Of a stretch of DNA of 64,000 nucleotides, positions 10,972-50,178 are shown in pieces. The stretch's first letter is position 1. Every line of letters begins with the position of its first letter. Source of the DNA: an uncultured virus (IMG/VR IMGVR_UViG_3300042471_000812) (lineage: Duplodnaviria > Heunggongvirae > Uroviricota > Caudoviricetes); IMG/VR virus record IMGVR_UViG_3300042471_000812. The stretch is one strand, 5' to 3'. Below the pieces are notes generated by a model. That model searched no databases and had not been told where the DNA came from. It saw nothing but the letters and a program-made list of their open reading frames with translations. Both the position numbers and the translations under genes were made by a program.

Positions 10972-11067
10972 GTATAACAGCGTGTTTATGCAAGCGGGCG
11001 GACAACTTGCGATTAGTAATTAAGTTCGTGCTATGCCCGCCTGACATAAACACGCAAAACGTTATTT
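10972..11067 (-). other. attC-like recombination hairpin
   Basis: Minus strand: TAAC...GCGTGTTTATGTCAGGCGGGC-loop-GCCCGCTTGCATAAACACGC-T-GTTA; imperfect palindrome with a bulged base between AAC and GTT cores. Confidence 0.7.
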
Positions 11068-11498
11068 ACACCCCAAACCTACAAACTATTTCAATACACA
11101 AATGTTAATAATAGTTAAAAGAAAAGCGGCCACAACGGATAGCATTATAACGGCAACATCTTCAACATCAAGATGCTCGCAGTTTACCACTTTGTTGTCA
11201 TAGTAGATAAACACTGATACCATGAGTAAAACAGCTATGGCAATCATGGCATGCAGATTATTATTGTATCTCCAACTTCATGTGGCTCGGAGGTGTATAG
11301 TTTTCCGCACTCCCCATCAATGGTTTTAACTTCATATTCTGGAATGCCCAAGGCCGCCGAAACGATAATCAATATCAACATTTTCATACGTTAAAAATTA
11401 CACCGTTAACTCTCCCTATGGCAAAAATAGTCAAGGGGATAAAATAAATCTTTACGCTCAGGACAATAATCCCTGCCCAGAGCAACAGCATAAATGCC

Positions 11499-21505: not shown

Positions 21506-21736
21506 TTAAATGTAAGATACATTCCCGTACCGGTCATATTTATACTTAATAGTAACGCCTAGGGAATCAGTAAGCGATACAACCCGATCCTTTTTATCGT
21601 AAACTCTATTGCTAAAGTAACCGGTTGAAGCTTCAAAGCGGGTGCAATTACCGCGCTCATCGTATTGCCAATTAAAGGTGATGCCGTCAACTGTTTGTTG
21701 GATGCGCCTGCCGTTTGCGTTTCTAATTGTGGTCAT
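21506..21736 (-). CDS. Small YD-repeat protein
   Basis: YDERGN, YDKKDR, YDRYGN repeats; probable ATG at 21736. Confidence 0.65.
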   Translation of the reverse strand: MTTIRNANGRRIQQTVDGITFNWQYDERGNCTRFEASTGYFSNRVYDKKDRVVSLTDSLGVTIKYKYDRYGNVSYI

Positions 21737-21746
21737 GGTTTTAGGC

Positions 21747-22001
21747 TTAAATGTTAACAGCTTTAGAAAAGTCAGGGGCAACCCGCATATCTAATACAGC
21801 TATGCGCAGGCGGTCAATGTTATTTTTCTCAGCATAAGCAATACCCGCCCTCTCAAGCTCATCTAGATTAGTATATCCCCTGCACTCAAATAGAATGTCT
21901 TCCTTGTAATCAGGTTCACCCGCTTTAGTAACGTAAAGCAACGTTGTGGTTTGGGAATGTTGCGGTAAAATTTGCCGCGTGATTTTGATTTTTGCGTTCA
22001 T
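21747..22001 (-). CDS. Hypothetical protein (first gene of the leftward early operon)
   Basis: Downstream of TAGGTTTG promoter element at 22030-22037 (minus). Confidence 0.6.
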   Translation of the reverse strand: MNAKIKITRQILPQHSQTTTLLYVTKAGEPDYKEDILFECRGYTNLDELERAGIAYAEKNNIDRLRIAVLDMRVAPDFSKAVNI

Positions 22002-25265: not shown

Positions 25266-25916
25266 ATGAGATACATAGCTTATGGTAGGACATCTACCAA
25301 CAAACAGGACAATGGCATTGAGGTTCAGCGCCAGGCATTGCAGACCTACAACCCTGAGAAGTGGTTTATTGAGCAGGAGAGTGGTAAGAATAAGGAGCGG
25401 CCTCAGCTTCTTGCAGCGTTAGAGTATTGCAAGGAGCATGATTGCACGTTGTTATTCTATAAGATTGACCGATTGGCTAGGGACGCCGAATATGCACTAA
25501 AGATTAAGAACTCTGGTGTAAAGTTACGCTGCCACACCATGCCGGAGATTAACACGATGGTATTTGGTATTTTTGCTGTTATCGCCCAAGATGAGGCTGA
25601 GACCATTTCCAAGCGGACAAAGGAAGCCCTTAACATCTTAAAGCAGAATGGCAAGAAGTTGGGTTATTATTCCCACAAGCAGGAGTTACCTAGGGAGCAT
25701 TTTAACTATATGCAGGAGCGTAGTGTTGAGGTTCGTAGGGAGAGGTCTAAGGCTAGGCTTAGTAATGCTGTTAGGCTTGCTAGGAGGTTTAAGGATTCGG
25801 GTATGAGTTATGCTGCTATTGCCGAGGAGTTTAATGCTCTTGGCATGAAGAGTTCTAGGGGTAAAGGGTTTTTGCCTATGACTGTTCAAAGGCTTATTCG
25901 TTTCGGCGCGGTATGA
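25266..25916 (+). CDS. Serine recombinase (resolvase/invertase family)
   Basis: YGRTST catalytic Ser, ESGKNKERPQL, KIDRLAR, ISKRTKEAL, C-terminal HTH. Confidence 0.9.
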   Translation: MRYIAYGRTSTNKQDNGIEVQRQALQTYNPEKWFIEQESGKNKERPQLLAALEYCKEHDCTLLFYKIDRLARDAEYALKIKNSGVKLRCHTMPEINTMVFGIFAVIAQDEAETISKRTKEALNILKQNGKKLGYYSHKQELPREHFNYMQERSVEVRRERSKARLSNAVRLARRFKDSGMSYAAIAEEFNALGMKSSRGKGFLPMTVQRLIRFGAV

Positions 25917-28300: not shown

Positions 28301-30535
28301 ATGATTTTAACTTCACCTACTTCTGGGGTTTATATTAGCAGCTTGCCTGAGCAGGCATTGAGCGATGAGCAGATAACTCAAAAGTATCATTCTTTGGAAG
28401 AGTGGTATGCCCAATGTGTTCGGTTTGTGGCTGGAATGTATAACCGCCCCAACTACAATACTGGCCGGCCAGATGGCAGTGTGGTATCTTCCTTCACCAA
28501 TAGTGCTTTGTTTCAAAACACTCCGGTGCAGCAGATGATTAACAACTACATGTATTTTCATGGGGACCAGCCAAACGATAGGTTTTCCTATTTGTTTGAG
28601 GACCCTTTGCAGAATAAGGTATTGCCTGGGGGTGGTGGTTCGCTTATTATCCCTACCCCTTGGGAAAGGGGGCATCAGGTGTATAATTTGATTACTCACT
28701 TGATTGGCAGCTTTTCGGGCCGTATAGCCTATTCAAAGCTATCTATTCAGAACAATAGCAAGGAAGGTAGGGCAAAGGCCGAAAGTGAGCGTATGCAAGC
28801 CTATATGTTTGCCATGATGAAAAAGACTGGCATACTTGATGAGCTTGCTAATTTGGGTGTGGAGTATAACCCTTTCCCGGCTGCCTCAGACGCCGAATTT
28901 GAAGACCTAATGGAATACATCAACAACTTCCCCCAAGAGATTGAGGCGTTAAAGTTGATGAAGGATATTATCTTTAGGAACAACACCCCAGCGCTTATAG
29001 AGAAGATATTTTCAAACACGATTATAAATCGCATTGGTGCGATGCTCGTTGATACTGATGAAGAGGGTTATGTTCGCCACCATGTGGTACAGCCGCAGCA
29101 GGTAATCATTGACCAAGTTGGTGATGAGGATTTTTCCGATAGGGATAGGTTTGCTGGGTACATTGAGTTTTTATCTCCTGAGGAGGTTATCTCCAAGTAC
29201 AAGATAACTGATGAGGAAGAGCGTAACACTATTTATTCTATGGCTGGGGGTACGGTACCTACGGCCAATGATTTTTATGGTTCAGCACAAGGGTATTATT
29301 TCCCTTGGTGGTGGAGTGAAGGTGAAGGGCGTGTGGCTTGTGTTACTGCTTTTTGGAAGTCTTACAAGAATGTTGATATTGGGGATTTAATCGAGGGGAA
29401 AGGCCGCCGGAAGAAAGGAGACTTTATGTTTCAAACTATTCGGCGCGGTACCCTAATCGGAAACCAAATCCTAAAGAACTTTGGCGAGGATAAGAATATC
29501 GTAAGGAATCCCTTTAAGCCTAAAGAGGCTGTCCTTCCCATTCTTTCTGTTCGGCCGTACACTCGCATTGGTTACAACAAAAGCTTAGTGGATAGGCTTC
29601 GTGCTGCCCAAGACAAGATAGATGTCATGGAGGCAAAGATTACCGATGCCATAGCCCATGACTTAGGGAATGTGTATGTGTTTTATGGCGATGCCATTGA
29701 AACTGATGCCGATGAGTTTATGAGCGATATTAAGAAGAATCGCTTTACCTTTTTGCGTAGGAGTACCGGTGAGGACTTAGACCAAAGCGACTTCCAAAGG
29801 GTAATGGAAAAGCTTGATATGGGTATTACCCAGAACATCATGCACTACATAAACCTGAAAAAGGAGAAGCAAGCAGAGATGGAGGCTATTGCCTCAGTGA
29901 GCAAGATAGCCCTTGGGCAGCAGCAGACCTATGTAGGTATGAACACCCAAGTGAACACCATCGCCCAAAATGCTAAAGGCGTGGAATACTACTTTGCCTC
30001 AGTGATTAAGCTCTATGCCGATGTTATGCAGTATAGCATAGAGAAGCAGAAGCTTGTTTTAATTAACGATGGCGACAAGGAACTTGAAAGAGAGATACTC
30101 AGTGAGCGTGGCTCGGAGTATTTGAAACTTAATAAAGATTTCTCTTTTACCAAGTTGAATGTCCGGATAGTTGTTGAAGATGTTATCAACTCGGAGAGTA
30201 AGGGAAGGTTAATGCAAATGGCTGTGGCAATGGCTCAGAGTGGCCAGATGGATATGCTTGATTATTTACGCATAGAGACTGCCAACACTTACAACGAGCT
30301 TATGAATTACTTTGAGGCTGCAATCCGCAGGAAGAAGAAGGAAGAGGCTCAGATGAAGGCTATGCAGCAAATGCAGCAGATGGCCGCTATTGAAGCCCAA
30401 GGGCAGCAGTTAGCACAGCTAGAGGCTATGAAGCAAGATGGCCAAGATGCTCGCCATGCCGATAAGATGGAGCTTGATGCTACTAAGTTGGGGCTAGAAA
30501 CTGGGGAAAAATTGATGTTAAATAATAATATGTAA
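28301..30535 (+). CDS. Portal protein
   Basis: 744 aa after terminase; SLVDRLRAAQD motif; Q-rich C-terminal coil as in crAss-like portals. Confidence 0.8.
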   Translation: MILTSPTSGVYISSLPEQALSDEQITQKYHSLEEWYAQCVRFVAGMYNRPNYNTGRPDGSVVSSFTNSALFQNTPVQQMINNYMYFHGDQPNDRFSYLFEDPLQNKVLPGGGGSLIIPTPWERGHQVYNLITHLIGSFSGRIAYSKLSIQNNSKEGRAKAESERMQAYMFAMMKKTGILDELANLGVEYNPFPAASDAEFEDLMEYINNFPQEIEALKLMKDIIFRNNTPALIEKIFSNTIINRIGAMLVDTDEEGYVRHHVVQPQQVIIDQVGDEDFSDRDRFAGYIEFLSPEEVISKYKITDEEERNTIYSMAGGTVPTANDFYGSAQGYYFPWWWSEGEGRVACVTAFWKSYKNVDIGDLIEGKGRRKKGDFMFQTIRRGTLIGNQILKNFGEDKNIVRNPFKPKEAVLPILSVRPYTRIGYNKSLVDRLRAAQDKIDVMEAKITDAIAHDLGNVYVFYGDAIETDADEFMSDIKKNRFTFLRRSTGEDLDQSDFQRVMEKLDMGITQNIMHYINLKKEKQAEMEAIASVSKIALGQQQTYVGMNTQVNTIAQNAKGVEYYFASVIKLYADVMQYSIEKQKLVLINDGDKELEREILSERGSEYLKLNKDFSFTKLNVRIVVEDVINSESKGRLMQMAVAMAQSGQMDMLDYLRIETANTYNELMNYFEAAIRRKKKEEAQMKAMQQMQQMAAIEAQGQQLAQLEAMKQDGQDARHADKMELDATKLGLETGEKLMLNNNM

Positions 30536-34298: not shown

Positions 34299-34504
34299 AT
34301 TGTATTTGGTTGGGGGTTTTTTAGTATTTGCAGTGCTGGCTTTTGTACTGATTAAATTACTATATTTGCATGTGAGTTTTGTGTTTTTTGCTCATAGGTT
34401 AAGGTTTAGCTCCCTCCGCGTAAGTGGGGGGAGTTTTTATTTTTAACACTTATTAACATTTGCGTGTTGGTTTTTTATTTAGGTTTGCAGAAACAAAAAC
34501 ACCC

Positions 34505-34720
34505 ATGAGCAACAAACAACAAACCGCAGTGGAATGGCTAATTGAAAGATATTTTGCAAGTAACGAACCTTTTGATTATAAACATTTAGCCCAAGCCAAA
34601 GAAATGGAGAAGGATAAAATGAAGAATTTATGGCATGCAGCGATATCTCACGGAGGTTGTAAATGCTATGATGAGATTATGACATTTGAAGAATACTACA
34701 AAGAAACCTTTAACAAATAA
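34505..34720 (+). CDS. Small 'QTAVEWL' family phage protein
   Basis: MSNKQQTAVEWL...AKEMEK...YYKETF; ATG at 34505. Confidence 0.7.
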   Translation: MSNKQQTAVEWLIERYFASNEPFDYKHLAQAKEMEKDKMKNLWHAAISHGGCKCYDEIMTFEEYYKETFNK

Positions 34721-34723
34721 CCC

Positions 34724-35020
34724 ATGCAACAACCAATTAACTTTTGCGACATTATGGCCCTTGGCTTCAACATGGAAAGCGGGCACGACCCTGTGTTTGA
34801 AAGACAACACGGCTACGAGTACAAAATCTTTACCAAGATGCTTGCCCCCACGCTGATGCTGGACTGGAATCAAGAAACACGCCTTTGCCAACTGTTTGTA
34901 ATTCGCCCCGAAGATGGGCATATCTATCAACGCATCCCTGTTATCGATACCAATTCTTTGCAAACGCTTGTTAATTCTTTCAAAAAACCCGAAGCCGATA
35001 CGTGCTATACGGCTTGCTAA
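34724..35020 (+). CDS. Hypothetical protein
   Basis: ORF whose TAA stop lies within GCTAAC. Confidence 0.6.
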   Translation: MQQPINFCDIMALGFNMESGHDPVFERQHGYEYKIFTKMLAPTLMLDWNQETRLCQLFVIRPEDGHIYQRIPVIDTNSLQTLVNSFKKPEADTCYTAC

Positions 35021-35042
35021 CACGAAATTAAACTGAAACAAA

Positions 35043-35252
35043 ATGGCAGACGAAAGAGATTGGAAACACTTCGCTAAAATGGCAAAAGAAGCACAAAAAC
35101 CCGCCTTGCAACAAACCGATGTTAGCGGTAGGTTTGTTCCTATTCGCTATTACATAACCGAGTTTTTTTGTTGGGTTGTTTGCGGAATAGATTTTTACAA
35201 AGACTACCGTAGATTTTATAAAGGACAAAATAAAGGACAAAATGTCCCTTAA
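35043..35252 (+). CDS. Hypothetical protein reading through a cassette core site
   Basis: ALQQTDVSGR is encoded across GTTAGCGGTAGG; complementary CTTACCGCTAAC follows the stop. Confidence 0.5.
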   Translation: MADERDWKHFAKMAKEAQKPALQQTDVSGRFVPIRYYITEFFCWVVCGIDFYKDYRRFYKGQNKGQNVP

Positions 35253-35676
35253 ACTTACCGCTAACTAATGTATAGGCGAAACAACCCCCGATAGGGTGCG
35301 GCTGCATTAGAAACCAAGCATCCAACTACCGATAGGGTACGAATTTCGTTTCCGTTTAGAACCCAAACAATTAGCCCCAGCCTTGGGGCTTTTTGTATTA
35401 AGTATCTCGCCATTAATTCCTTCGGCGGTTTTGGTAAATCGGAAAAGTTAGGTATATTTGACTGCCAGCTTATCCGCGTTCTTTTACCTTTCATAATTTA
35501 AGCTGGCTTTTTGGTTATCCCTCCCCCCACCTTTTTTTTGATTTTGAGGTGGGGGGATTTTTTCAACGCAACACTATGGATCAAAACGTAATTTGTGGCA
35601 ATAACATTGACCTATTAAGGGAGTACCCAGACAATCATTTTGACGCTATACCTACTCAACTCAAATTTAATTTCTA

Positions 35677-36417
35677 ATGAGCAAGCAAGAAATACTATTA
35701 GGAGATTGCTTAGAACTTATGAAGGACATACCAAACGGAAGTATTGATATGATACTTTGTGATTTACCTTATGGAATGACAAGTAATAAGTGGGATTGTG
35801 AAATTGATTTAACTGAACTTTGGAAGCAATATAAAAGGATTATAGAGCCAAATGGAGTAATAGCACTAACAGCAGGACAGCCATTTACTTCAAAACTTGT
35901 TTCGTCAAATTTTGAAATGTTTAGACACGAGTGGATTTGGAACAAAGATAGAGGAAGTAATTTTGCAAATACAGTAAGAGAGCCAATGAAAGAACACGAA
36001 AGCGTTTTAATATTTAGTAATGGCAAATGGACTTACAATAAGCAAATGGAAGAACGCAAAGGGAGTGGATTGGCAAGGGCAAAACAAAAATTCCATTGGA
36101 AGCCAAAAAGCGAGAATTACAGGGTAATGGAAGAAAAAAAAGCAGATAGCATTTCTGATTTAAGAGTTCCGAGTTCAGTTCAATTTTTCAAATGCGATAG
36201 AGGTATGCACCCAACGCAAAAACCAACTGAACTATTTGAGTATTTAATCAAAACCTACACCAATGAGGGTGATTTAGTTTTGGATAACACAGCAGGGAGC
36301 GGAACGACTGCGATAGCGTGTTTTAATACCAACCGCCAATTTATTGTAATGGAGAAGGAGGAGAAGTATTACGAAATTATTTTGAAGAGAGTGGCAGAAC
36401 ATAGAGGGATATTCTAA
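35677..36417 (+). CDS. DNA methyltransferase, beta class (N6-A/N4-C)
   Basis: CDLPYG, HPTQKP, VLDNTAGSGTT. Confidence 0.9.
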   Translation: MSKQEILLGDCLELMKDIPNGSIDMILCDLPYGMTSNKWDCEIDLTELWKQYKRIIEPNGVIALTAGQPFTSKLVSSNFEMFRHEWIWNKDRGSNFANTVREPMKEHESVLIFSNGKWTYNKQMEERKGSGLARAKQKFHWKPKSENYRVMEEKKADSISDLRVPSSVQFFKCDRGMHPTQKPTELFEYLIKTYTNEGDLVLDNTAGSGTTAIACFNTNRQFIVMEKEEKYYEIILKRVAEHRGIF

Positions 36418-36543
36418 AGAAAAGAGTACATTTGTACCGCAACCCACCTGAGCATTTTTTCATAACCTTTGTGTTCCAACTAATAGGGTTTGGTGGGTTG
36501 TTTTTTTTTCTTATCTTTGTGGCGGAACACAAATAAATTTCTT

Positions 36544-37917
36544 ATGAATAATGTTTATCCGCCGAAAACCCCAACCCCGCCGAAGAGCCGAAAAAAGGTA
36601 CAAAGAACAATCTACCTACCCAAGGACATTAAACTCAAAGTAGAAGCCTTAGACATTAAGCGCTGCGACAAGGATAACATTTACAAATTCTTAATGATAC
36701 TCATCTCCAAGGCAAAGAAGGAAGGGGATATTTACAGGGAGGTGGCGTTAGCGTTCAACTACTTAAAGAGGGTGTTAGGGGCAGGCACTTACAAAAGGAT
36801 AATCACACATTTAGAAAAGTTAGGGATAATCACTTGCGACTACTTTAAGGTTATGACACTTAATAAGAGTGGGAGGTGTTATAGGTATAAGTTGGTATTT
36901 AAGGAGAGATATTCTAGGGATAAAGTGGTCGCGGTATCATATTCTTCTACTAAATCATCAGAAGCCTTGCAAACACAAGTGTTTCAAGAGTGGTTTGAGG
37001 GGGATTTTAAGAGTTTAGTTATGCCAATGAATGAGCTTCGGGCGATTGCGAAGCGCCGAAAGGAAAATGTAAGCCTTACCAACTGCAAAGTAGGTACTGA
37101 GATAAGGGAAAATGTAGTTGAGATAGTTGATATTCGCACAAATTTCTCATATAGGGCGAGTAAAGAGGTGGCAATGGGTAGGGCAAACCTTCACAATCGG
37201 TTACTCATACAGGATAAGTCTGCGTGTTACATAATGACTGAGGGGGAGTATTTGAGGTTCAAGCGTTCTGCGGTGGAGTTGTCGGATAGTGATGCGTTGA
37301 ATAAGATAGAATCTGGGAATTTGCGAGCGGCCCGAAACACTACCAACCAAAGGCTAGACACGAACTTCACCAACTTACCAAACGAGTTTATGGCTGAGAT
37401 ATGCAAGGCGAACAACTTAAAAACCTTAGACATTGTAAATTCCCAGATAGCGTTAATGTCAAGAGTAATGCCCGACCTCAACACAGCCGATTCCGAGCTG
37501 TTTAAGAGCATTTCGGTAGATGGCACGTTCTACGAGTCAGTTCAGCAGTTGCTAGGCTTAAAATCAAGGAAAGAGGCTAAAATCGTTTCCTTTGAAATGT
37601 TGTTTAGTGCAAGGGGCAACAGGAGTGTTTATTTGAAGCGTATGCGAGAGGTATTCCCTTCGGTAATGGCGTGGGTAGATGGGTATAAGTTGGAGCATGG
37701 GGATAATATGTTTGCGGTGATGTTGCAGAGGGAGGAGAGCAAGATATTTGTTGATGGGTTGCTCCGCCGCATTAAGGTGCTGGGGTATTTGTGTTTCACG
37801 AAGCATGACAGCATTATTTACCGGGCGGGGGATGCTGGGGAGATAGAGCGGATCGCCGAAGGATATTTTGCTGAGATAGGTTTTGAGTGCAAGTATAAAA
37901 TAGAGGATTATTTGTAA
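36544..37917 (+). CDS. Family-A-polymerase-like protein without exonuclease domain
   Basis: TLDIVNSQ (motif A), RKEAKIVSFEMLF (motif B-like), LQREES, TKHDSI (motif C); probable ATG at 36544. Confidence 0.55.
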   Translation: MNNVYPPKTPTPPKSRKKVQRTIYLPKDIKLKVEALDIKRCDKDNIYKFLMILISKAKKEGDIYREVALAFNYLKRVLGAGTYKRIITHLEKLGIITCDYFKVMTLNKSGRCYRYKLVFKERYSRDKVVAVSYSSTKSSEALQTQVFQEWFEGDFKSLVMPMNELRAIAKRRKENVSLTNCKVGTEIRENVVEIVDIRTNFSYRASKEVAMGRANLHNRLLIQDKSACYIMTEGEYLRFKRSAVELSDSDALNKIESGNLRAARNTTNQRLDTNFTNLPNEFMAEICKANNLKTLDIVNSQIALMSRVMPDLNTADSELFKSISVDGTFYESVQQLLGLKSRKEAKIVSFEMLFSARGNRSVYLKRMREVFPSVMAWVDGYKLEHGDNMFAVMLQREESKIFVDGLLRRIKVLGYLCFTKHDSIIYRAGDAGEIERIAEGYFAEIGFECKYKIEDYL

Positions 37918-38606
37918 TGTTTAGTTATTACGGAAGCAAATCAAAAATAGTGGATTACTATCCACCGCCGAAACACAAAAGGATAATTGAACCTTTTGCT
38001 GGAAGTGCAAGGTATAGTTTGAAATATTGGCAGAATGATGTTTTGCTCGTAGATAAATACCCTGTGATTGTATCAATATGGGAATACTTAATCAAAGCTA
38101 CAAAAGCAGATATTTTAAACTTACCCGATATTGTTACAGGGCAAAATGTAGATGATTTTGATATTACACAAGTTGAAAAATGGCTAATAGGATTTTGTAT
38201 AAATGGTGGTTCAGCATCACCTAAGAAAACTGCAAAAGACTACAATACTTGGGGTGAAGCAAAAACAAGAATTGCTAATGATATTGAAAAGATAAAACAT
38301 TGGAAGGTGCAGCTTGGAAGCTATGAAGAACTTGAAAACGAAGATGCAACTTGGTTTATTGACCCACCATATCAAGTAGGTGGCGAATGGTATGTAAAAA
38401 GCACAAAGCATATTGATTTTGATAGCTTGGGTAATTGGTGTAAAAGCAGAAACGGACAAGTGATAGTATGCGAAAACACAAAAGCAACTTGGCTACCATT
38501 TAAACCAATGATTGATATGCAAGGTGCAATGTATAAAACAACGGAAGCAATATGGTCAAATCAAAGAACGAATTATGATTCAGTACAACAATCATTTGAT
38601 TTTTAG
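37917..38606 (+). CDS. Dam-like (D12 class) DNA adenine methyltransferase
   Basis: YYGSKS, EPFAGSA, FIDPPY. Confidence 0.85.
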   Translation: MFSYYGSKSKIVDYYPPPKHKRIIEPFAGSARYSLKYWQNDVLLVDKYPVIVSIWEYLIKATKADILNLPDIVTGQNVDDFDITQVEKWLIGFCINGGSASPKKTAKDYNTWGEAKTRIANDIEKIKHWKVQLGSYEELENEDATWFIDPPYQVGGEWYVKSTKHIDFDSLGNWCKSRNGQVIVCENTKATWLPFKPMIDMQGAMYKTTEAIWSNQRTNYDSVQQSFDF

Positions 38607-38671
38607 ATTATTTGTAATTGTGAATTTACTTGTATATTTGCACTAGAATTTTTTAACTAAAACGAGATTTA

Positions 38672-39520
38672 ATGAAACAGCCAGCTGTTATTTTCAAAAC
38701 GGCCAATCCAAATGGAGGCCAGCATTATCCTGGGGTGTATTACTCTGAGGACAAGCGAATGTTTGTTTATTTATTGGGCAGGGGAACGGTAACGGAGACA
38801 AAGACCGAGACTACTGACCCTGGCATTTTGAACTCTTTGTTTCGTGCCACGTTAGACCGGAACCAGCCAATTTTAGCGGGTTCTCAGTTGCCTTATCAAT
38901 TTGAGGATTTCAGTGAGGTATTGGAAAACAAGGAGGCGTTATCCTTTTTCAAGGCTTTAGCCCAAGACCCGTTGGTTCAGTGTGATGCTGACATATTGGT
39001 TGGAGGGTTGAAGAAGAAGTATTCTCCGAGGTTTATCTTAGAGATTCCCTCGCTGTATGTTAGCCGGAAGGCAACTGACACTAAGACTAAGGCCACGATA
39101 TTAGCTTCCTTTGTTGTTTTGACTGAGGATGAAAAGCGCGAGGTATGTTGGTACTTTGAGGTTGACCCAAGGGAAATGAGTGATGATGATATGCTAGTTG
39201 AGATGGCCGGGGATGGTGGAAAGTTGTATGGTGAGGAGAATGCGAAGCGTTACATCAGCAAGTTTGTAGAGACAGCTTCTTTGGGTGATGCTTACACTGC
39301 GAGGGTTATTGCCATTAAGAAGGCGATGATTATGTCTCAGTCTGACCAGGAGCCATTGGATTATCGTGAGGGCAACTATTATCATGGGGAGACTTATGTA
39401 GGCAAGGATGTTGACACTATTTTGGCATTCTTTGATGAGAACAAGCGTTTGTTTGATTCATTGATTGGCGGATTGGTGAGCAGCGCCGAAGAGAAAAAAA
39501 CAAGAGGAAAGGCGAAGTAG
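38672..39520 (+). CDS. Hypothetical protein
   Basis: 282-aa ORF with its own promoter (38633) and terminator (39527-39559). Confidence 0.7.
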   Translation: MKQPAVIFKTANPNGGQHYPGVYYSEDKRMFVYLLGRGTVTETKTETTDPGILNSLFRATLDRNQPILAGSQLPYQFEDFSEVLENKEALSFFKALAQDPLVQCDADILVGGLKKKYSPRFILEIPSLYVSRKATDTKTKATILASFVVLTEDEKREVCWYFEVDPREMSDDDMLVEMAGDGGKLYGEENAKRYISKFVETASLGDAYTARVIAIKKAMIMSQSDQEPLDYREGNYYHGETYVGKDVDTILAFFDENKRLFDSLIGGLVSSAEEKKTRGKAK

Positions 39521-39526
39521 GAGATA

Positions 39527-39559
39527 GGGCCTCGGCAATAGTGCCGGGGCCTTTTTTTT
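39527..39559 (+). terminator. Intrinsic terminator
   Basis: GGCCTCGGCA-ATAG-TGCCGGGGCC followed by TTTTTTTT. Confidence 0.85.
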
Positions 39560-39572
39560 AACCCTAAAGGAA

Positions 39573-39899
39573 ATGACACAGGATTTATTTATAGAGACAA
39601 TTTTAGCTTTAAAGAAGCAAGTCCGGCACGACACCAAGTTTGCTAGGAAGATAAGCAAGTTGTTTACTGACTGCCAGATGATTGGTTACAACAATGATGT
39701 TTTAATTGAGCAGATGGTAAAGGTATTGGCTGAGCTTACTGGGGACAAGAGTGATTGGATTGGGTATTATGTTTGGGAGCTTAGCTTTGGTGATGATTGG
39801 CTGGAGGGTGCTGTAATGTTTGGGGGTAAGGACATAAAGCTCCAAACGCCCACAGACTTGTGGAATTTGTTGCAAATGGGAAAAGGGGTAAAGCCATGA
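39573..39899 (+). CDS. Hypothetical protein
   Basis: DWIGYYVWELSFG...LWNLL, a common phage small-protein pattern. Confidence 0.65.
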   Translation: MTQDLFIETILALKKQVRHDTKFARKISKLFTDCQMIGYNNDVLIEQMVKVLAELTGDKSDWIGYYVWELSFGDDWLEGAVMFGGKDIKLQTPTDLWNLLQMGKGVKP

Positions 39900-40016
39900 C
39901 CAATAAACCATTCATTAACCCTATTTTGTACCTTTAATGACGCAAAAATGATGCAAATATGATTATGAAAGAAGAACAAAAACAAAGAATTAAGCATAAA
40001 ACAACAAATATAAAAT

Positions 40017-40289
40017 ATGGAAACGGAAACTAAATTATCAGACTACACTCGCAGCTTGCGCCAAACTGCTGTTATGCCTTGTTTTTTTATCGGACAGGAA
40101 GTCAAAACAGAACATGGTATTGGTATTATAGTAGCTATTGAAATGCCACACAACGGACTTTATTTGCAACCCGAAAGAGCCGAAGCAGTTGTTTGGTACA
40201 GCACAGAAAGAGCGTTTGAAGAAGGTATTAAGTGGGTTAGCTTCACTTATAAATTGTCAGAATTGTCGGCTGTTGAAAATGAGGCATAA
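40017..40289 (+). CDS. Hypothetical protein reading through a cassette core site
   Basis: LRQTAVMPCF is encoded across GTTATGCCT; stop lies inside the complementary AGGCATAAC. Confidence 0.6.
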   Translation: METETKLSDYTRSLRQTAVMPCFFIGQEVKTEHGIGIIVAIEMPHNGLYLQPERAEAVVWYSTERAFEEGIKWVSFTYKLSELSAVENEA

Positions 40290-40319
40290 CTATCGTATAG
40301 GCGAAATAAACGAGATATT

Positions 40320-40556
40320 ATGAGCCAACTAATTCTAAAATTTAACCTTCCCGAAGAAGAAACCGAGGCCAACTTTGCATTAAAGGGTGGGGAATACTTC
40401 TTGGTCCTGCATGACCTTTGCCAAAAGCTGAGGGATATTACCAAGTACGGGAATAACCCCTTTATCGGCAGAACAGCAAGCGAGCAAGAGGTTCTACTTG
40501 CGGAGCAGATACGGGAGTATCTTTCTGAGCAAAACATTGATGAGTTGTTGCGATAG
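40320..40556 (+). CDS. Hypothetical protein
   Basis: LKFNLPEE motif ORF. Confidence 0.6.
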   Translation: MSQLILKFNLPEEETEANFALKGGEYFLVLHDLCQKLRDITKYGNNPFIGRTASEQEVLLAEQIREYLSEQNIDELLR

Positions 40557-40574
40557 CCCAAAAACGCCGAAAAG

Positions 40575-40880
40575 ATGAAGCACATAGAAACAAAATCTGA
40601 ACTAGAAGAGTTCTTAACCAACCCCTCCGCCTTTTTAGTTATTGGAGCTACATGGTGTGGCCCATGCATGCTTATGGGTCCAGCCCTAGAAAAGTATTCT
40701 GAGGGGAGGAATGTAGCCAAGATAAACATTGACAAGTGCGACAGCGACCTCGCCGAAGAGATTAAGGGTAAGTATCGTATAATGGGAGTACCAAAGTCTA
40801 TGCAATTTGAGAATGGGGAGCTTGTAAAGGACACTGTTGGCAAGCTTAGTCTGCAAGATATGGAGAGCATGTTTGGGTAA
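40575..40880 (+). CDS. Thioredoxin
   Basis: ATWCGPC active site. Confidence 0.9.
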   Translation: MKHIETKSELEEFLTNPSAFLVIGATWCGPCMLMGPALEKYSEGRNVAKINIDKCDSDLAEEIKGKYRIMGVPKSMQFENGELVKDTVGKLSLQDMESMFG

Positions 40881-40916
40881 TTATCCAAATTCTTTTTTTG
40901 TATCTTTGTCTCTACT

Positions 40917-43341: not shown

Positions 43342-46300
43342 ATGGCGAATATATTACCTGTGCAGAATAACATTAAGGGCACGTTAGATTTAGATAGCGA
43401 GTTTGGGGAGGTGCGTTCCGGGAATTATGTAGGCGCCGAAAACGTACAATTTATTAGCAAGGAGGGTAACGAGAGTATTCCCAAGCAACCTTTCATAGGC
43501 AATAAGTTATTATTTGACAAGGGGAGTGTAGAGGTACAGAACAAGCGGTTTCGGCTTTTCTTTGATTTGGGCGATACGTTCACTTTTCAAGTGTTTTCCG
43601 CCAACAATTCCCAGCAGATAAGTAGTTTGTTCAGCGTTCCTTCCAACGCATCTTATGCGGCGTATAGGAGTGCTATTCAAGGCTTTTTAACGAGCGCTGG
43701 CCTTTCTTCTACTATCACGATAGGCTCTGACCATTTGAACGTGGAGATAACCTCTGTGGCAACGTATGACTATCAGTTTAGGGTAAGTGGTGTGAGGGTT
43801 ATTGTTACCCAGGAGAGCATTGCCAACAACTTCACTGGCTTTTTGAAAGACATTGGGAGTTTTGATTTGAATGGCGATTTGTTTTTATTTTCAACCCCTC
43901 AGGAAGAGTTGCCTGAGGAGTTGGGTATTGTGAGCGTAAGTTCTCTCGGAGTGGTAACTACTTTGTTGCCACATGGCTTAGTTTCTGGCAATGAGGTTCG
44001 GCTTGCCGGCAATGGGACCAACGATGGTATTTTGTTGGTTCAGGTTGTGCTTACTCCCACTTCATTCACTTACCATTACCCTGCTGGTGTTACTGGCACT
44101 GGGGGTATATTGACAAAGAATTACACTGGTGTAGGGGAGATTGGGGTTGCCCAATTTAATGAGCAGGCCGAAACGGGAACTTACACAAGATTGTTGAGGA
44201 GTAAAGAGTTCGGCTTTAACACGCTGCACCAGATAGACTGCGATGGGGAGATTAACCCATTAGGTAAGTCGCTTTATTTTAATCAGTACAAGTACAACCC
44301 ACCTAGGGTATTTTATTATTCTGGGGCGTATGTAACTGATGGGGCTTTGACTTATGTTATCCCTGAGAATCGATATGAGTATGGCACTATTGACTTGGAG
44401 ACAAGGACAATCTTGAACATACAAACTGCAAAGTTAGATTTGGTAAGTGTGAGCGAGGGCGGTAATTTGAAGGCTGGGAATAAGCAGTATTTCATTAGGT
44501 TTCTAACTTCCGAAGATGCGTTGTCGGGCACTGATTATCATGCGTTTACTGGCAACGTGAATATATATAAGGCGTTTGCCACTGGCGATCCAAACAAGAT
44601 TGCTGGCAATGTTTCCGGCACGATTACTTCCAAGAAGGTTACGTTGAGGGTTGAGAATGCCCAGCCGGCTTTGTTTGGATTTCTGGAGTTGTGTGTTGCC
44701 GAGTGGTTTGGGGATTCAGTAACTTTTTCCACTGTTCGCAGGGAGGAGTTTACTGAGGAGACATTTGAGATTGAGCATACTGGTTTTGAGGTTGCCACGC
44801 CACTTTCCACTGAGGAGGTGTTGCGGTTAAACTCATTGATTAAGAACATTGGCGGCCAGCGTATTGTTGACAATCGGTTGGTGATGCATGACATTACTTA
44901 CGAAGAGCGCAAGGATTTTAGGGCTTGGGCCGAAAGGATTAACCACACAATTATCAAGGAAGAGATTACCGGTAATGGATTTGTAGCTTCGGGAAAGGTG
45001 TATGGAGGTTATCAGAACCCTCAGAACACGTTTAGGACTGTTGGCTACAAGTGGTTTGAAACGTACAGGTTTGGCATTAGGTTGTATTTGAAGGAGGGTG
45101 GTGTTACCGAAACCTTTTGGATTGATGATATAAAGTTTGATATTACTCCCACGAATGTAACCACGCCGAATAGAAGAGTAGGCACACCTCCCCCCAACTA
45201 TGAGTTAAACGTACAAGCATTAGACGACAACTTCTTTGTTCCTGGGGTAGATTTTAGCAACATAGATTTCGACTATTTAATTGATGGCAGAAGGTTGAGG
45301 GATATTGTCGGCAAGGTTGAGTTTATGAGGGTGGAGCTTGGGGATAATACCAAGGAGGTTTTGGTTAATGGCATGGGGATAATTGGTATGTCTGGTCATT
45401 TTAATTCTAACTCGAAAATAATTGGAAATGTAAGGAACGGATACCCAAATGTAAATCAAACGACAACTCCAAATTATGGAGTAAGGTATCCTTTTCCGTT
45501 TTTTTCAGGGCAAGGTTCTTTTGGACTTTTGGGAACTGGTAATGTTGGAACACTTCCTTTTAACGTAGCATATCAACCTACAAGTGCTTTTTACGGATTT
45601 AGGTATATGTATGCAACAAATGGAATGGATAGTTCCGACCAGTATGCATATCAGCAAAACTATAAGCCAAGGGATTCTATTTTTATTGTTTCTAACGATG
45701 TTGTTTTTGGTAAGGATACTATTGAGTTTCAGCCTGGAGACCAAATAATAAACTTTGGAAGGCCATTGGCAGAAGCTGGCGCTCCATTTCCGGGAACAAC
45801 AATAAATCTTTTTAATTTCATAAGAGATTTCAGGTTGTTGAATTTGGGTGTTAATGGTACTCCAAACCCATATTTTCACAACATACAAGATGCAAAATTG
45901 TTGCCTAGGGATTCATTAGAGATTATGTTGACAAGCGGTATAAATTGCCACTATGTTTCAAGTGCTAAATCTTCTGACAATGGAGTTCTGCCTCAAGATG
46001 TTGCAGAAAGAACATACGCATTTGAGTCTAGCATCGCTGTTTCGTTGGCAGATTTACTTTTACCCGGAAGTTGGTCTCGCGGGCCAAACGATCCGCTTTA
46101 TCCAGATGCAAATTACACCAACACTAACGAGGGCGTTTATTGGGTGAGTTATTATCGACCAAGGATATACACTACGCCAGACGCTTCAAAGTTTGGGGAT
46201 AGGGAGAGTTCGCAGTACATTTCTACTGGCATAAGCCAGATTGTCAATGACAATGTTCCTTCCTTATTTAACCTAAAGGTTTTTGGTGGGGACACGTTTA

Positions 46301-47862
46301 TTGGCAGAACTCAGTTGAAATTCTGGAATCACTTGACAGAAACGCTTGGTATTGATTATACCGATGAAACTTATGCTATGTCGTTTGTTGCTCAAAGTAC
46401 GGTAAGCCCAGAAATGCGTACTGATATAGGCCAAATTGCTCCAGCTTCTTTCCCTGCCACGCCAACCAATGACTATAAGACATGGCTAACAAACTTGACT
46501 TTAGATTCTACGGAGTATGATACTAGCTATAATTTCCACGCGGTAGGTAATTCAAACGCATACAATGAAACAAGAACTTTCGTTGAGGAGTTCCCCTCTC
46601 GCGTAATATGGAGCGACTTAAAGCCTGATGGTAGTTTCTTTGATTCATACAGGTTTTTCCCTCCCGGCCAGTTCAATGATTATTCAAGGAATTACGGTCC
46701 GGTGGTACACATAGAAACTATTGATGATGAGTTTTTTGTAATGCAGCACAGGAATTTCAGCAGGGAGTATTTCAACACTACCGGCACGATAAGCTCTGAC
46801 ACCGATGAGTTGGTGATATTGGGTAATGCTGGTGTTCTTGCTCGCAAGGGTGCTACCATTACCTCTTATGGTTCGCTTCACAAGTGGTCTTGCGTTAAGG
46901 GGCGTAGTGCTTCTGGCCGAGATGTGTTGTATTGGTTCAATGCTGAGAATGGTTTATTCTTAAAGTATGGCGGAAGGGGTGCAGAGCCATTAAGTATGGC
47001 GAAGGGGTTAAACCAGTGGTTCAATGAGAACAGCAAATTTGTTTACAGCCACAACACTCCGGCAGCAGGCAGGGGGATATGTGGTGGTTGGAACGAGCGT
47101 TTCCAAGAGTTGCGTTATACCTTTAGGGGTTACAAGAATAGCCCTGAGTGGGGTGTAGGTAATACTTACGATAAGGGTGATGTGGTTATTTATGGCGGTA
47201 ATGGGTTTGTTCCTGTGCAGTTGTATTTGTCTAGGGTTGACCATATTAGTTCTCCTGCGAACATTCCTGGGGGAAACACTGTAACGTGGGAGGCTATTTC
47301 CGAAAAAGATTCACGTTATTACAATGTATTTACATTGGTGTATAATGAGATGAAAGATGGCTTTACGAGTTTCTTATCTCCGAAGCCGTTGATATATCAT
47401 CGTTGGAGGAATAATTTATTGACACAGCGTTATGGTGAGTGGAGTCAGTATCCAAATTACTTAGAGAATTTCGGTGATTACAACACTTGGTATTCTTCTG
47501 AGGAAGGGGAGTTGGCCGAAGATGGTTTTGTCATTCCGGTTATCAATTACAATAGCGATGTGATTAAGAAGTTTTCGGCGTTGTATGTTGATAGTGAGGT
47601 TGCTCCTGACAGGGTTGAGTTTTTCACTCCTGAGCATGAGAGTTTTTTGGTGTTGAGTGATTTTGAGAGTAGGGAAGGTATGTGGGTAAGCACTATTAAA
47701 AACGATATTTTAACCGCGCCGAATGGCATAAACGATGGGGATACTAGCAGGCTGTTTGGTCGGTACTTACTGGTCAAGGTTTTCTTTTCTCCCAAAAAAT
47801 TCCAATCTTTGCGTAACATAAGAGTGCGCTTACAATTTAATTCACGATATTTACAAACATAG
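43342..47862 (+). CDS. Tail stabilisation / muzzle protein
   Basis: 1506 aa; GYKWFETYRFGI, FGGDTFI, RVIWSD, SFLSPKP motifs. Confidence 0.7.
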   Translation: MANILPVQNNIKGTLDLDSEFGEVRSGNYVGAENVQFISKEGNESIPKQPFIGNKLLFDKGSVEVQNKRFRLFFDLGDTFTFQVFSANNSQQISSLFSVPSNASYAAYRSAIQGFLTSAGLSSTITIGSDHLNVEITSVATYDYQFRVSGVRVIVTQESIANNFTGFLKDIGSFDLNGDLFLFSTPQEELPEELGIVSVSSLGVVTTLLPHGLVSGNEVRLAGNGTNDGILLVQVVLTPTSFTYHYPAGVTGTGGILTKNYTGVGEIGVAQFNEQAETGTYTRLLRSKEFGFNTLHQIDCDGEINPLGKSLYFNQYKYNPPRVFYYSGAYVTDGALTYVIPENRYEYGTIDLETRTILNIQTAKLDLVSVSEGGNLKAGNKQYFIRFLTSEDALSGTDYHAFTGNVNIYKAFATGDPNKIAGNVSGTITSKKVTLRVENAQPALFGFLELCVAEWFGDSVTFSTVRREEFTEETFEIEHTGFEVATPLSTEEVLRLNSLIKNIGGQRIVDNRLVMHDITYEERKDFRAWAERINHTIIKEEITGNGFVASGKVYGGYQNPQNTFRTVGYKWFETYRFGIRLYLKEGGVTETFWIDDIKFDITPTNVTTPNRRVGTPPPNYELNVQALDDNFFVPGVDFSNIDFDYLIDGRRLRDIVGKVEFMRVELGDNTKEVLVNGMGIIGMSGHFNSNSKIIGNVRNGYPNVNQTTTPNYGVRYPFPFFSGQGSFGLLGTGNVGTLPFNVAYQPTSAFYGFRYMYATNGMDSSDQYAYQQNYKPRDSIFIVSNDVVFGKDTIEFQPGDQIINFGRPLAEAGAPFPGTTINLFNFIRDFRLLNLGVNGTPNPYFHNIQDAKLLPRDSLEIMLTSGINCHYVSSAKSSDNGVLPQDVAERTYAFESSIAVSLADLLLPGSWSRGPNDPLYPDANYTNTNEGVYWVSYYRPRIYTTPDASKFGDRESSQYISTGISQIVNDNVPSLFNLKVFGGDTFIGRTQLKFWNHLTETLGIDYTDETYAMSFVAQSTVSPEMRTDIGQIAPASFPATPTNDYKTWLTNLTLDSTEYDTSYNFHAVGNSNAYNETRTFVEEFPSRVIWSDLKPDGSFFDSYRFFPPGQFNDYSRNYGPVVHIETIDDEFFVMQHRNFSREYFNTTGTISSDTDELVILGNAGVLARKGATITSYGSLHKWSCVKGRSASGRDVLYWFNAENGLFLKYGGRGAEPLSMAKGLNQWFNENSKFVYSHNTPAAGRGICGGWNERFQELRYTFRGYKNSPEWGVGNTYDKGDVVIYGGNGFVPVQLYLSRVDHISSPANIPGGNTVTWEAISEKDSRYYNVFTLVYNEMKDGFTSFLSPKPLIYHRWRNNLLTQRYGEWSQYPNYLENFGDYNTWYSSEEGELAEDGFVIPVINYNSDVIKKFSALYVDSEVAPDRVEFFTPEHESFLVLSDFESREGMWVSTIKNDILTAPNGINDGDTSRLFGRYLLVKVFFSPKKFQSLRNIRVRLQFNSRYLQT

Positions 47863-48549: not shown

Positions 48550-50178
48550 ATGACACCACTAGTAGCAGGTATAGCATTAACAGGAAAAGCCCCAGTGTAC
48601 GAAAACGTATATATGGCAGGGCTTAAACAAAAGGCAGCTGGTGAGACGGCCAAGGCGAAGGAAAAAGCAAAGGCAGCGGAGGATATTGAAAAGTCAATAA
48701 ATGTTGACCCTTCAAAGTATCATTTTTCAATGCAACCTCTTGTGAAGGAAAAGGCTTCCGAAGCTCTAACAAAGATGAGAAAGGTAATGGCTGAAGACCC
48801 TGTAAGAGGTATAAACACGGCTAATGATATAAAGCGAGATTTGCTTATAGATTTAGCTGGGATGGCAAACGCAAGCAATCAACTTTTTGAAAGGGAAAAG
48901 CCTACTTACACTTCTACATACCTTCGTCCGGATGCTACATTTAGGGCGCTGAATAGCAAGGATATTCGTGAAGCGATTAAAGACCCTGCGGTACAGAAAG
49001 AGCTTCAAGATTATGATTGGCAAATAAATGTTGACCCAAACGGTAGGGTATCCATAAACTTTTCGGATATAAAAAGTTTTGATGTAAGGAAGGAGTACAA
49101 TACTTTTCAGGGCGATATTATAAACCAATTTGCTCCTAAGTTGGCTGAAAAGTTTAGGGTTGGCGGGACAACTAGGCAAGAGCTTTCTCAGGTGATAACC
49201 AAAGAAAGGTCTGATGCTTATTTAGATTTAATCTCTTCGGATCCTGTTGGAGGAAAAAGTGCTGTGTTTAATTGGAAGAAAAAGTATAACGTTGACATTA
49301 CAACACCTGAAGGAAAGCAAAAAGTTTACGAGACATTTGTTGCGCCAGAAAGGTCAGCGGTTACCTCTCGGCCTGCAATGAATATTAATATTGGCGACGG
49401 AAGTAAAACGACAACTTCTCCAGTTGTTTCTCAAGCTTCTCTAACTGCTGATACTAGTTATAACTGGAGTCCATCGGCAAGGCCAGAAGGCCACTATGTT
49501 TTACAATTTGCGGAAGGGTTTGGCAACAAGAATCTTGTCGCTAGTGATGTAAATGGAAATCCATTAAAGTTTGAAAGCCAAAAAGAGGCAGAAGAATATC
49601 TTGTCAATAATAGCAAGTTTGATTATGAAGCTATTAAAACTTTAAACTTAGATATTCCTCCTGTTGGCATTACAATTCCTGCTGGTGAAAAGTCCTTTAC
49701 TATTGGCGAGGAGGGTTCTCGTACTGGTTATGGTGAAAATGTTGAGTCTAATACTTTCAATATGAAAGTTAATAGGTTGGAAACTGTGGAAACTTATACT
49801 GGTGATAAGATTTTGACTGTTGGTTTATTTAGAATGGAAAAGGGGGACATTATACCCCCAGAAATATCAAAATACGTTCCTTCTGATAAAACAGAAAAAA
49901 GGGTTTTTGTTGTCGGAGAGGTGCAAACTTCATATAAAACAAATGTAGGGACAAGGGATAGTGGTGGTACTGTGTATGTTCCTGCTACTAAGCAAAATAT
50001 AAGTGCCATTATTTCAAAGCTTACTCCATCAGACAAGGAAACAAGAAAGATGCTTGAAGATATTAATACTGGCAGGCAAAAGCTTGGTGATGGTAGGATA
50101 ATCGGCGCAGCAACGAAGGGCGCCGAAAGGCAACCTAAGAGTGGTTTTAGTTTGTTAGAATTTGATAATATAGCATAA
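48550..50178 (+). CDS. Probable internal virion (ejection) protein
   Basis: Position between pilot protein and giant protein. Confidence 0.5.
   Translation: MTPLVAGIALTGKAPVYENVYMAGLKQKAAGETAKAKEKAKAAEDIEKSINVDPSKYHFSMQPLVKEKASEALTKMRKVMAEDPVRGINTANDIKRDLLIDLAGMANASNQLFEREKPTYTSTYLRPDATFRALNSKDIREAIKDPAVQKELQDYDWQINVDPNGRVSINFSDIKSFDVRKEYNTFQGDIINQFAPKLAEKFRVGGTTRQELSQVITKERSDAYLDLISSDPVGGKSAVFNWKKKYNVDITTPEGKQKVYETFVAPERSAVTSRPAMNINIGDGSKTTTSPVVSQASLTADTSYNWSPSARPEGHYVLQFAEGFGNKNLVASDVNGNPLKFESQKEAEEYLVNNSKFDYEAIKTLNLDIPPVGITIPAGEKSFTIGEEGSRTGYGENVESNTFNMKVNRLETVETYTGDKILTVGLFRMEKGDIIPPEISKYVPSDKTEKRVFVVGEVQTSYKTNVGTRDSGGTVYVPATKQNISAIISKLTPSDKETRKMLEDINTGRQKLGDGRIIGAATKGAERQPKSGFSLLEFDNIA

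Follow-up and report, generated by a model that had tools for sequence, protein, structure and literature searches.

Two dispersed gene segments of an uncultured tailed phage, probably decayed cassettes of an integron-like, hairpin-based recombination system

Introduction

A classical integron has beside its array an IntI integrase, a tyrosine recombinase with an extra domain peculiar to IntI; its attC sites are imperfect hairpins that combine GTTRRRY and inverse cores with an unpaired spacer and a variable loop, and the newest cassette adjoins a sequence-conserved attI near the integrase gene. In integrons, the strand of an attC site that folds best is the bottom strand. Xer-dependent pdif modules are bounded by inversely oriented, 28-bp duplex dif-like sites, and elements of the IS200/IS605 kind have hairpin ends, insert 3' of a fixed tetranucleotide and recognize their ends by pairing near the hairpin. 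Phages have also been found to carry clusters of two or more attC sites lacking an integrase (CALINs), one of them in a Polaribacter phage, according to Qi et al. 2023 (PMC9892861), and the PeSL cassettes of T4-type phages are described in two further reports as having sequence-conserved promoter and terminator repeats that recombine by homology (PMC2839356, PMC4122927). Here we describe two small-gene segments in a 64,000-nucleotide stretch of DNA from an uncultured virus of the Caudoviricetes (IMG/VR record IMGVR_UViG_3300042471_000812; this whole stretch is hereafter the window), each of which has complementary ends and runs into a conserved motif, TAACTAnnGTATAGGCGAAA. Sequence comparison makes it probable that both segments are decayed cassettes, derived from an integron-like system of site-specific recombination that relies on hairpins and circulates among Bacteroidota-type phages, and the motifs in the window are most likely orphan attI-like docking sites.

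On the coding strand, the full unit of such a system would begin just past a TAAC with a long imperfect hairpin, followed by GTTA-N6-G-TTTT, an open reading frame (ORF) and AAAA-T-N6'-TAAC; the hairpin would be conserved in structure and variable in sequence, sometimes with the start codon in its loop. Like integrons, the system has single-gene units, folded sites conserved in structure and GTT.../...AAC cores; the start of a unit is complementary to its own inverse core, and rows of units in other phages end at a conserved site adjoining a tyrosine recombinase gene of the Xer/IntI group. In contrast to integrons, where attC lies 3' of the ORF on its sense (top) strand, the hairpin here is 5' of the ORF and moves together with the gene that follows it, whose start codon it may contain; the ORFs are on the best-folding strand. 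The recombinase, at 266 aa, also differs in falling below the NCBI integron-integrase cut-off and in lacking the IntI signature, and its gene is co-directional with the cassettes; furthermore, the ends pair over 15 nt with an invariant G.T, and one genome can have, at dispersed places, several short rows or lone units. The pdif modules have in common with this system an Xer-like recombinase and inversely oriented bounding sites, but here there are long hairpins with a unit-specific N6, and rows end at one conserved site beside the enzyme gene. Unlike IS200/IS605 elements, no HUH enzyme is found here and a tyrosine recombinase goes with the unit rows. As with CALINs, integrase-free rows occur in phages, and P12002L_attC1, among the sites presented in PMC9892861, is of the same hairpin build as the hairpins described here. 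As in the cited PeSL accounts, small non-essential genes lie in plastic regions, stem-loops mark the exchange points and close relatives have presence/absence alleles; unlike in those accounts, no more than 4-5 nt are invariant, the two sides of each stem change in concert, pairing of the ends spans the ORF and there is an association with a site-specific recombinase. A full-text literature search returned the phage CALINs (PMC9892861) and no paper on an Xer-linked, hairpin-first cassette system in phages.

Results

Motif sites and paired ends

The motif has three copies in the window, against 0.05 expected by chance. A 20-nt search pattern, TAACTANNGTATAGGCGAAA, with up to three mismatches allowed, found sites at exactly 10421 (-), 35262 (+) and 40287 (+), and none of 100 shuffles reached three. 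All three sites are co-oriented with the local genes, and each begins at or just past a stop codon. A preliminary description of this DNA had placed GTTAGCGGTAGG from 35121, CTTACCGCTAAC at 35254-35265, GTTATGCCT at 40071-40079 and AGGCATAAC at 40282-40290, with the stop codon TAA (40287-40289) inside it, and had noted that the 23 nt of CTAACTAATGTATAGGCGAAACA at 35261-35283 recur unchanged on the minus strand at 10419-10441 and that ATAACTATCGTATAGGCGAAATA stands at 40286-40308; every one of these strings was recovered where it had been placed. The features of the two loci and of the third site are as follows.

Locus A (35018-35390)
35018-35021 (+): TAAC closing the 98-aa gene at 34724-35020, left junction of a variable block; nine of nine relatives (L276-L284) share sequence up to this TAAC
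35022-35042 (+): leader ACGAAATTAAACTGAAACAAA before the variable ORF, kept with small changes in nine alleles ahead of unrelated ORFs
35043-35252 (+): 69-aa ORF with a conserved head and a cassette-encoded tail, from comparison with L278 and L280/L281
35105-35120 (+): right-arm-like hairpin half CTTGCAACAAACCGAT, with the layout ...CAAACnGnT then GTTA, as in the complete hairpins of relatives
35121-35135 (+): left inverted end, GTTA-GCGGTA-GGTTT, pairing with 35251-35265 at 14 of 15 positions, the one mismatch being G.T on the coding strand
35251-35265 (+): right inverted end, AAACT-TACCGC-TAAC, from the inverted-pair search
35262-35283 (+): probable orphan attI-like motif TAACTAATGTATAGGCGAAACA, from the pattern search; 4.4 bits on the position matrix given below
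35284-35390 (+): backbone module with two CCGATAGGGT repeats and then an intrinsic-terminator-like hairpin at 35373-35390, common to alleles with and without the motif

Locus B (39957-40319)
39957-40319 (+): inserted block of a short leader, cassette B and the motif, from presence/absence alleles
40017-40289 (+): cassette-B ORF, 90 aa, with 27 homologs down to 51% identity
40055-40070 (+): right hairpin arm CTTGCGCCAAACTGCT, encoding ..SLRQTA, which pairs with a left arm in L285, L287 and L288
40071-40085 (+): left inverted end, GTTA-TGCCTT-GTTTT (codons V-M-P-C-F), from the inverted-pair search
40276-40290 (+): right inverted end, AAAAT-GAGGCA-TAAC, stop codon included, from the homology border
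40287-40308 (+): probable orphan attI-like motif TAACTATCGTATAGGCGAAATA, from the pattern search; 5.7 bits on the same matrix

Third site
10419-10449 (-): third motif copy with its preceding end, GGTTGTGCCTAAC, from the pattern search; partner absent
10966-11077 (-): the sole complete attC-like hairpin of the window, upstream of a 169-aa ORF (10450-10959) that ends at the third motif

The ends of cassette A (35121-35135/35251-35265) are 15 nt long and 93% complementary, and those of cassette B (40071-40085/40276-40290) are likewise 15 nt long and 87% complementary. Within the window alone both pairs are unexceptional (2 of 95 inverted pairs), and exact GTTA-N6...N6'-TAAC pairs are not more frequent there than pairs built on control tetramers; their significance comes from a comparison across loci, which exceeds chance. 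For this comparison the exact pattern was taken from 15 viral, 25 metagenome and 10 bacterial-genome stretches, which gave 41 contexts after removal of duplicates: 14 unrelated chance contexts (with other bases at NN, and lying in coding sequence or bacterial chromosomes), three with too little upstream DNA and 22 distinct related contexts that were evaluable (24 rows, with two near-identical pairs merged). The 13 nt ending in TAAC were scored against the best reverse-complement GTTA partner within 1.3 kb upstream. Among the 22 related contexts, 13 had a partner of at least 11/13, which in 12 cases lay no more than 800 nt away; four reached 10/13 and five scored lower; none of the 14 chance contexts reached 11/13, and in a background of 613 other TAAC sites of the window 2.0% reached 11/13 and 0.16% reached 12/13. 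It had been anticipated that the gene upstream of the motif would vary, and that the bases before AAC would co-vary with those after the upstream GTT. Both were borne out, as at least 12 different upstream sequences precede one motif and the ends co-vary in 13 of 22 contexts against the 2.0% background, with a compensatory change in homologs.

The variable part of the ends is exactly six bases, the left end being GTTA-N6-G and a T-run and the right end an A-run and T-N6'-TAAC. In 14 distinct cassettes the N6 match is at least 5/6, and in all 14 a G at position 11 of the left end faces a T in the right end; these same 14 show the classical mark of an integron cassette (where the crossover is at G|TT), a start complementary to its own inverse core. 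BLAST end points lie near TAAC or GTTA in 137 of 1021 cases (13.4%) against a null of 7.8%, an enrichment among end points that are not independent. Cassettes L076 c1 and L280 c2 have different ORFs with identical ends and 5' leader (GTTATGTGCCGTTTTTATT... / ...AATGGCACATAAC), and thus unrelated genes can have the same ends. As an example of the background, a 12/13 GTTA...TAAC pair lies inside a conserved gene at L277 846-1259 (the same gene in L279, L280 and L284), with no adjoining hairpin or motif.

At every related site the motif follows a cassette-type TAAC end, and in L043-type relatives the motif of the 40287 type also stands at the end of another array, one of three genes. On a contig of Flavobacterium sp. 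7A (L205 2501-2522), all 22 nt of TAACTAATGTATAGGCGAAACA are found unchanged in an intergenic region, adjoining a small HTH-type gene; this copy has no cassette partner (7/13). Three other candidates were set aside. A looser pattern, TANNGTATAGGCGAAA, found 115 stretches that were almost all unrelated coding sequence; an "empty" target made of two half sites (..AAC-N4-GTATAGGCGAAA) found 45 viral stretches, every related one of which was the TAACTAnn form; and as for a host integron source, 185,579 bacterial species genomes gave 10 single matches, no more than chance would give, whose partners scored 7-8/13, and no rows with the motif.

Cassette B in other contexts

Locus B is empty in 15 of 20 close relatives, where ...GATGCAAnn runs directly into ATGAGCC (the ATG of the next gene) with no cassette and no motif, and the remaining five carry the L043-type row. 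The same empty form is seen in one contig of run X9, where only GC stands between 39956 and 40320. The two filled alleles have everything from the TAAC rightwards in common and nothing leftwards. In L043 the three-cassette row has at its left edge a second copy of the 21 nt (ATGAGCCAACTAATTCTAAAA) with which the gene downstream of locus B begins (117-137 and 1080-1100), a duplication that suggests a joint of a non-site-specific kind at that edge.

No Pfam or PHROG family matches the cassette-B protein; relatives of it are encoded in seven viral loci and, as judged from homology, its ORF is a real conserved small protein family. In L285, L287 and L288 the homologous block begins immediately past an upstream TAAC, with the left arm first and the start codon in the hairpin loop; the right arm then encodes ..RSLRQTA and is followed by GTTATGCCTC and the ORF, and the block ends exactly at GAGGCATAAC, with unrelated DNA on both sides of it. 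The right border at TAAC is common to the window, L289 and L290, and L290, like the window, is without the upstream TAAC and the left border. Altogether, cassette B was found in at least five contexts with nucleotide-exact borders at TAAC and with five different followers (the motif, a second hairpin and three others). From the shared borders of these blocks it follows that the unit consists of the hairpin, the ORF and its own TAAC end, with the hairpin 5' of the gene. Among the first loci compared, no cassette was seen at two motif sites or in two contexts; such contexts were found later by way of the cassette-B homologs.

These homologs also hold the compensatory change. In L289/L290 (60% protein identity) the six bases are TGCCCC/GGGGCA, with GTTATGCCCC paired with GGGGCATAAC, a double change relative to TGCCTC/GAGGCA. 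The TGCCTC of the relatives is the exact complement of GAGGCA, while the TGCCTT of the window gives a T.G pair. In the window the homology of cassette B begins at 40000, within the loop, and the left hairpin arm is therefore missing.

Hairpins and unit layout

The order of a unit in the relatives is hairpin, GTTA-N6, ORF and N6'-TAAC. In L043 (locus of 40287) the motif ends a row of three small ORFs with two imperfect palindromes of about 95 and 145 nt between them, which take the form x'TAAC, bulge, helices, loop, helices, GTTAx. Two cassettes and one palindrome are present in L076 (locus of 35262), and L280/L281 have two cassettes with a 23-nt junction between them that holds a motif variant. 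Helix sequences vary from one palindrome to another and yet remain complementary inside each. For the N6 beside GTTA, the N6' beyond the following ORF is a better match than the one across its own palindrome; this pairing across the ORF is the pattern that would be expected from a crossover at TAAC/GTTA. Due to G.T (G.U) pairs, the folded coding strand is more stable than the folded complement in five of five palindromes, by 5.6-8.4 kcal/mol.

Rows with two junction sites are seen in the relatives L043, L288 and L280, while the window has one complete hairpin (10966-11077) and two half sites. The complete hairpin is laid out as TAAC, a bulge of 4-5 nt, two helices, a loop, the helices again, T and GTTA, and its folding energy is -46.3 kcal/mol for the coding strand and -37.9 for the opposite one; its N6 (TACGCA) is unmatched to the right end at 10441. 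The attC-like traits observed are the TAAC...GTTA bases, the bulge of 4-6 nt, the co-varying helices and loops of 30-75 nt, with a spacing unlike that of the attC examples displayed in PMC9892861. An Rfam scan gave no window match at the gathering score, and in nine loci gave weak sub-threshold matches only, besides one tRNA elsewhere in L084.

Link to a tyrosine recombinase

In the database protein P0028, the first 44 residues of the cassette-B protein are fused to the C-terminus of a recombinase, a fusion that could have arisen by genuine rearrangement at a row of cassettes or else by faulty assembly. The recombinase part shows 100% identity to proteins of 266-268 aa (P0030/P0031) with the domains PF13495, PF00589 and PF22823, and the recombinase family has 6557 proteins at E <= 0.001. 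The recombinase scores highest with the XerA-type model (174 bits, cut-off 220), followed by the integron-integrase model TIGR02249 (154 bits, cut-off 265), the latter in a two-piece match whose split presumably coincides with the place of the IntI extra domain; it is below the curated cut-off of every NCBIfam model.

There are 226 relatives of the recombinase in viral contigs, and 80 of these loci were fetched. In 73 of the 76 loci with enough upstream DNA, a TAAC was found 35-95 nt before the recombinase start (mostly 46-56 nt), in a site that mostly reads nnT-N6'-TAAC-TA(T/G)nnTATAT, also rendered as TAAC-TAnnATATAT. Of 53 distinct recombinase-proximal sites that had at least 400 nt upstream, 37 were matched by a GTTA segment scoring 11/13 or more, and the G/T polarity was as in the other cassettes. 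Cassette ends common to recombinase sites and motif sites include ..gcattgcaccTAAC, ..aaatggcacaTAAC, ..aatgttttaTAAC and ..attacttaTAAC, and the first unit in the L043 row (ORF1) is 96% identical over 200 nt to the cassette touching the recombinase site in L318. The motif has the position of the recombinase-proximal site, directly past the TAAC of the last cassette. On a position matrix made from 46 distinct recombinase-proximal sites, the window motifs at 35262 and 40287 scored 4.4 and 5.7 bits against a mean of -22.7 for 634 other TAAC sites, one of which reaches 4.4 bits and none 5.7. In L336-L338 a relative of the L138 cassette, 69% identical, lies downstream of the recombinase gene (4258-4496), and thus rows may flank this gene on both sides.

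Variation at locus A

In nine relatives the gene ending GCTTGCTAAC and the 21-nt leader are followed by at least five different fillings, two of which are without motif or pair. The first 11 residues of the 69-aa ORF are common to L278 and the first 26 or so to L280/L281, up to GTTAGCGG, with unrelated sequence beyond; the ORF has no Pfam or PHROG match, and no complementary left arm was found upstream of the hairpin half at 35105-35120. Logan contigs of lake metagenomes (X7, X9 and X10) have the joints 35017>35251 and 35059>35262, the intervening sequence being not known. A module of about 60 nt with the two CCGATAGGGT repeats (35284-35345) is a separate indel, absent in L134 and, in L276, placed between two TAACs right after the 98-aa gene.

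Genome context

The window is a nearly complete phage genome, with the following further features.

1-24752 (-): replication and recombination genes
25266-25916: serine recombinase of the resolvase/invertase (Hin) type (PF00239 4.9e-25, phrog_125 3.6e-38)
28301-30535: P22-like portal, from profile scans
43342-47862: crAss-type muzzle protein, from profile scans
50178-59618 (+): 3146-aa ORF downstream of the crAss-type muzzle gene, its residues 1510-1805 being a C5 cytosine methylase domain

Several DNA methylases are also encoded in the window, as judged from profile scans, and the 3146-aa protein may be a giant injected or cargo protein. No relative of the portal was found among 50,697 deposited phage records, and 21 unannotated window proteins matched no NCBIfam family. 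The IMG/VR record G001 (65,101 bp) has 97% of sampled words in common with the window and three motif sites with the same spacing. Matches to 34400-40900 came from lake-water metagenome runs. A 24-nt inverted repeat, 83% complementary and 101 nt apart (34376-34399/34501-34524), surrounds the start of the ORF at 34460-34720, and contig joints of four metagenome runs lie near it, at 34533-34594. Among a run of very small minus-strand ORFs, one of 91 aa (21506-21781) has an RHS-repeat match (1.1e-09).

Discussion

The preliminary description had proposed that a single recombination system is used at dispersed loci, which is supported by the variable upstream genes, the co-varying ends and the presence of a similar site near an Xer/IntI-related gene. 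Its view of the motif as the fixed downstream half of an attachment site also gained support, as the motif lies in the same place as the recombinase-proximal conserved site and resembles it. Since the motif is conserved in sequence and the hairpins in structure only, the two show a contrast like that between attI and attC in integrons; it is because of this contrast, the position of the motif and its likeness of about 13 nt to the recombinase site that the motifs are read as orphan attI-like sites.

The proposed mechanism would follow the logic of the R''/R' boxes of attC sites in integrons. A circular cassette with one complete hairpin, opened by a crossover between TAA and C, would come to have its last 15 nt paired past its own hairpin. 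Rows of units would end at the conserved TAAC-TAnnRTATA..., which elsewhere lies 46-56 nt upstream of the Xer/IntI-related recombinase gene. The recombinase would cut between TAA and C on the folded coding strand, whereas the motif would be bound as duplex DNA, and the enzyme would have to act in trans because this phage has no recombinase for the system. The breakpoints of the window copies, in A-rich loops or leaders immediately ahead of start codons, suggest that these copies arrived or were trimmed there by ordinary recombination, after site-specific assembly elsewhere.

Several observations weigh against this interpretation. No tyrosine recombinase (PF00589) was found among the 78 window proteins or in 15 related phage records, and loci L001-L291 and the window have no relative of P0030. 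The exact GTATAGGCGAAA form is beside none of the 80 recombinase genes, the likeness of the motif to the recombinase site extends over about 13 nt only, and two Flavobacterium genomes (G017, G018) encode recombinases 44-45% identical with no cassette row within about 1.5 kb. A partner of at least 11/13 is absent at nine of the 22 related sites, including 10421 (-) of the window, which has no complementary GTTA partner (best 9/13). Empty alleles of locus B lack the motif as well, and at this locus it must therefore have arrived with the inserted block rather than having been part of the backbone. Both window cassettes, being without the left hairpin arm, may have lost their mobility. Neither recombination products nor circles nor excision junctions were seen, and the joints come from assembled contigs for which the intervening sequence is mostly not known. 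As for the closest published hairpin, P12002L_attC1 of Polaribacter phage P12002L is a prediction by HattCI only and, in the experiments reported in PMC9892861, was the one of six sites without verified IntI1 junctions. Finally, folding of the coding strand, flanking A-runs and T-runs and a start codon in the loop would equally suit a role that is purely at the RNA level.

In that last case the hairpins and ends would be terminators, processing sites, start-codon clamps or the panhandle ends of mRNAs, and the genes would be shuffled by homologous or illegitimate recombination at such conserved intercistronic signals, as has been presented for PeSL in PMC2839356 and PMC4122927. We consider this unlikely. 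In its favor, all five hairpins fold better on the sense strand, with conserved G.U pairs, the ends are flanked by A-runs and U-runs, the start codon is in the loop with the right arm inside the coding region, the window copies look trimmed in A-rich leaders before start codons, and a leader and terminator module is common to the alleles of locus A. Nevertheless, the hairpins are unconserved besides TAAC/GTTA, which is too little homology for homologous exchange, and yet borders are exact to the nucleotide in at least five contexts; the N6 pairs across the ORF and not inside the adjacent hairpin; the same ends lie beside a tyrosine recombinase gene in 73 of 76 loci; and there is neither an Rfam match nor an excess of sigma-70-like promoters (16 against 15.5 expected). 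An RNA run (X19) covered only short parts, through contigs of relatives. An RNA role and recombination may well coexist. If the motif were a promoter for a phage-specific RNA polymerase or sigma factor, with the pairs arising by chance, a co-oriented island of 20-23 nt conserved between genes would be expected, as is seen, and we take the motif to have a superficial resemblance to promoters of single-subunit polymerases. This reading is highly improbable, as neither an RNA polymerase nor a sigma factor turned up in Pfam, PHROG and NCBIfam scans of the window, the pairs greatly exceed chance across loci, the motif always stands past a cassette-type TAAC end and the copy at 35262 leads into a terminator without an intervening gene.

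Units that begin past TAAC and end in TAAC, a segment at the hairpin foot complementary to the distal end, strand-biased folding and the possibility of arbitrary sequence past the final TAAC would all fit a single-strand "peel and paste" element of the IS200/IS605 kind, or another hairpin-guided transposon, that inserts 3' of TAAC and has its right end picked by guide pairing. Such an element has a slim chance in our estimate, since no Y1/HUH transposase family was found among the 78 window proteins scanned, the enzyme beside the rows belongs to the Xer/IntI group of tyrosine recombinases, and the rows, as in integrons, have a conserved site at their end. It could also be thought that the segments are invertons flipped by the phage's own Hin-type serine invertase (25266-25916) at the GTTA...TAAC repeats, as inverted repeats do bound the segments and an invertase homolog is encoded in the window. 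We give this very little credence: no flipped cassette was seen, all BLAST matches among loci being co-linear and G001 being arranged as the window is; the N6 is unlike between segments; and the invertase occurs in one of 10 further records (the close relative G011) and is absent in nine that carry cassettes, such as G007 (86% complete).

Integrons have been regarded as bacterial devices defined by IntI, while here the logic of cassettes is met in phages, in a version with a different, minimal recombinase, a reversed geometry of gene and hairpin, and dispersed docking sites. Standard integron finders may well miss such a system. As a tentative and rather doubtful extension, a small phage without a recombinase might keep orphan docking sites that recombinases supplied in trans, by co-infecting large phages or by the host, load and unload with cassettes, giving a community-wide exchange among unrelated Bacteroidota phages; the integron-like machine would then have evolved, or diverged early, with an Xer-type enzyme, its hairpin doubling as a platform for the start of translation in each cassette. 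If active, the integron-like system would explain how small accessory genes hop with base-pair precision between unrelated phages, and it would bear on the origin of integrons from Xer-type recombinases.

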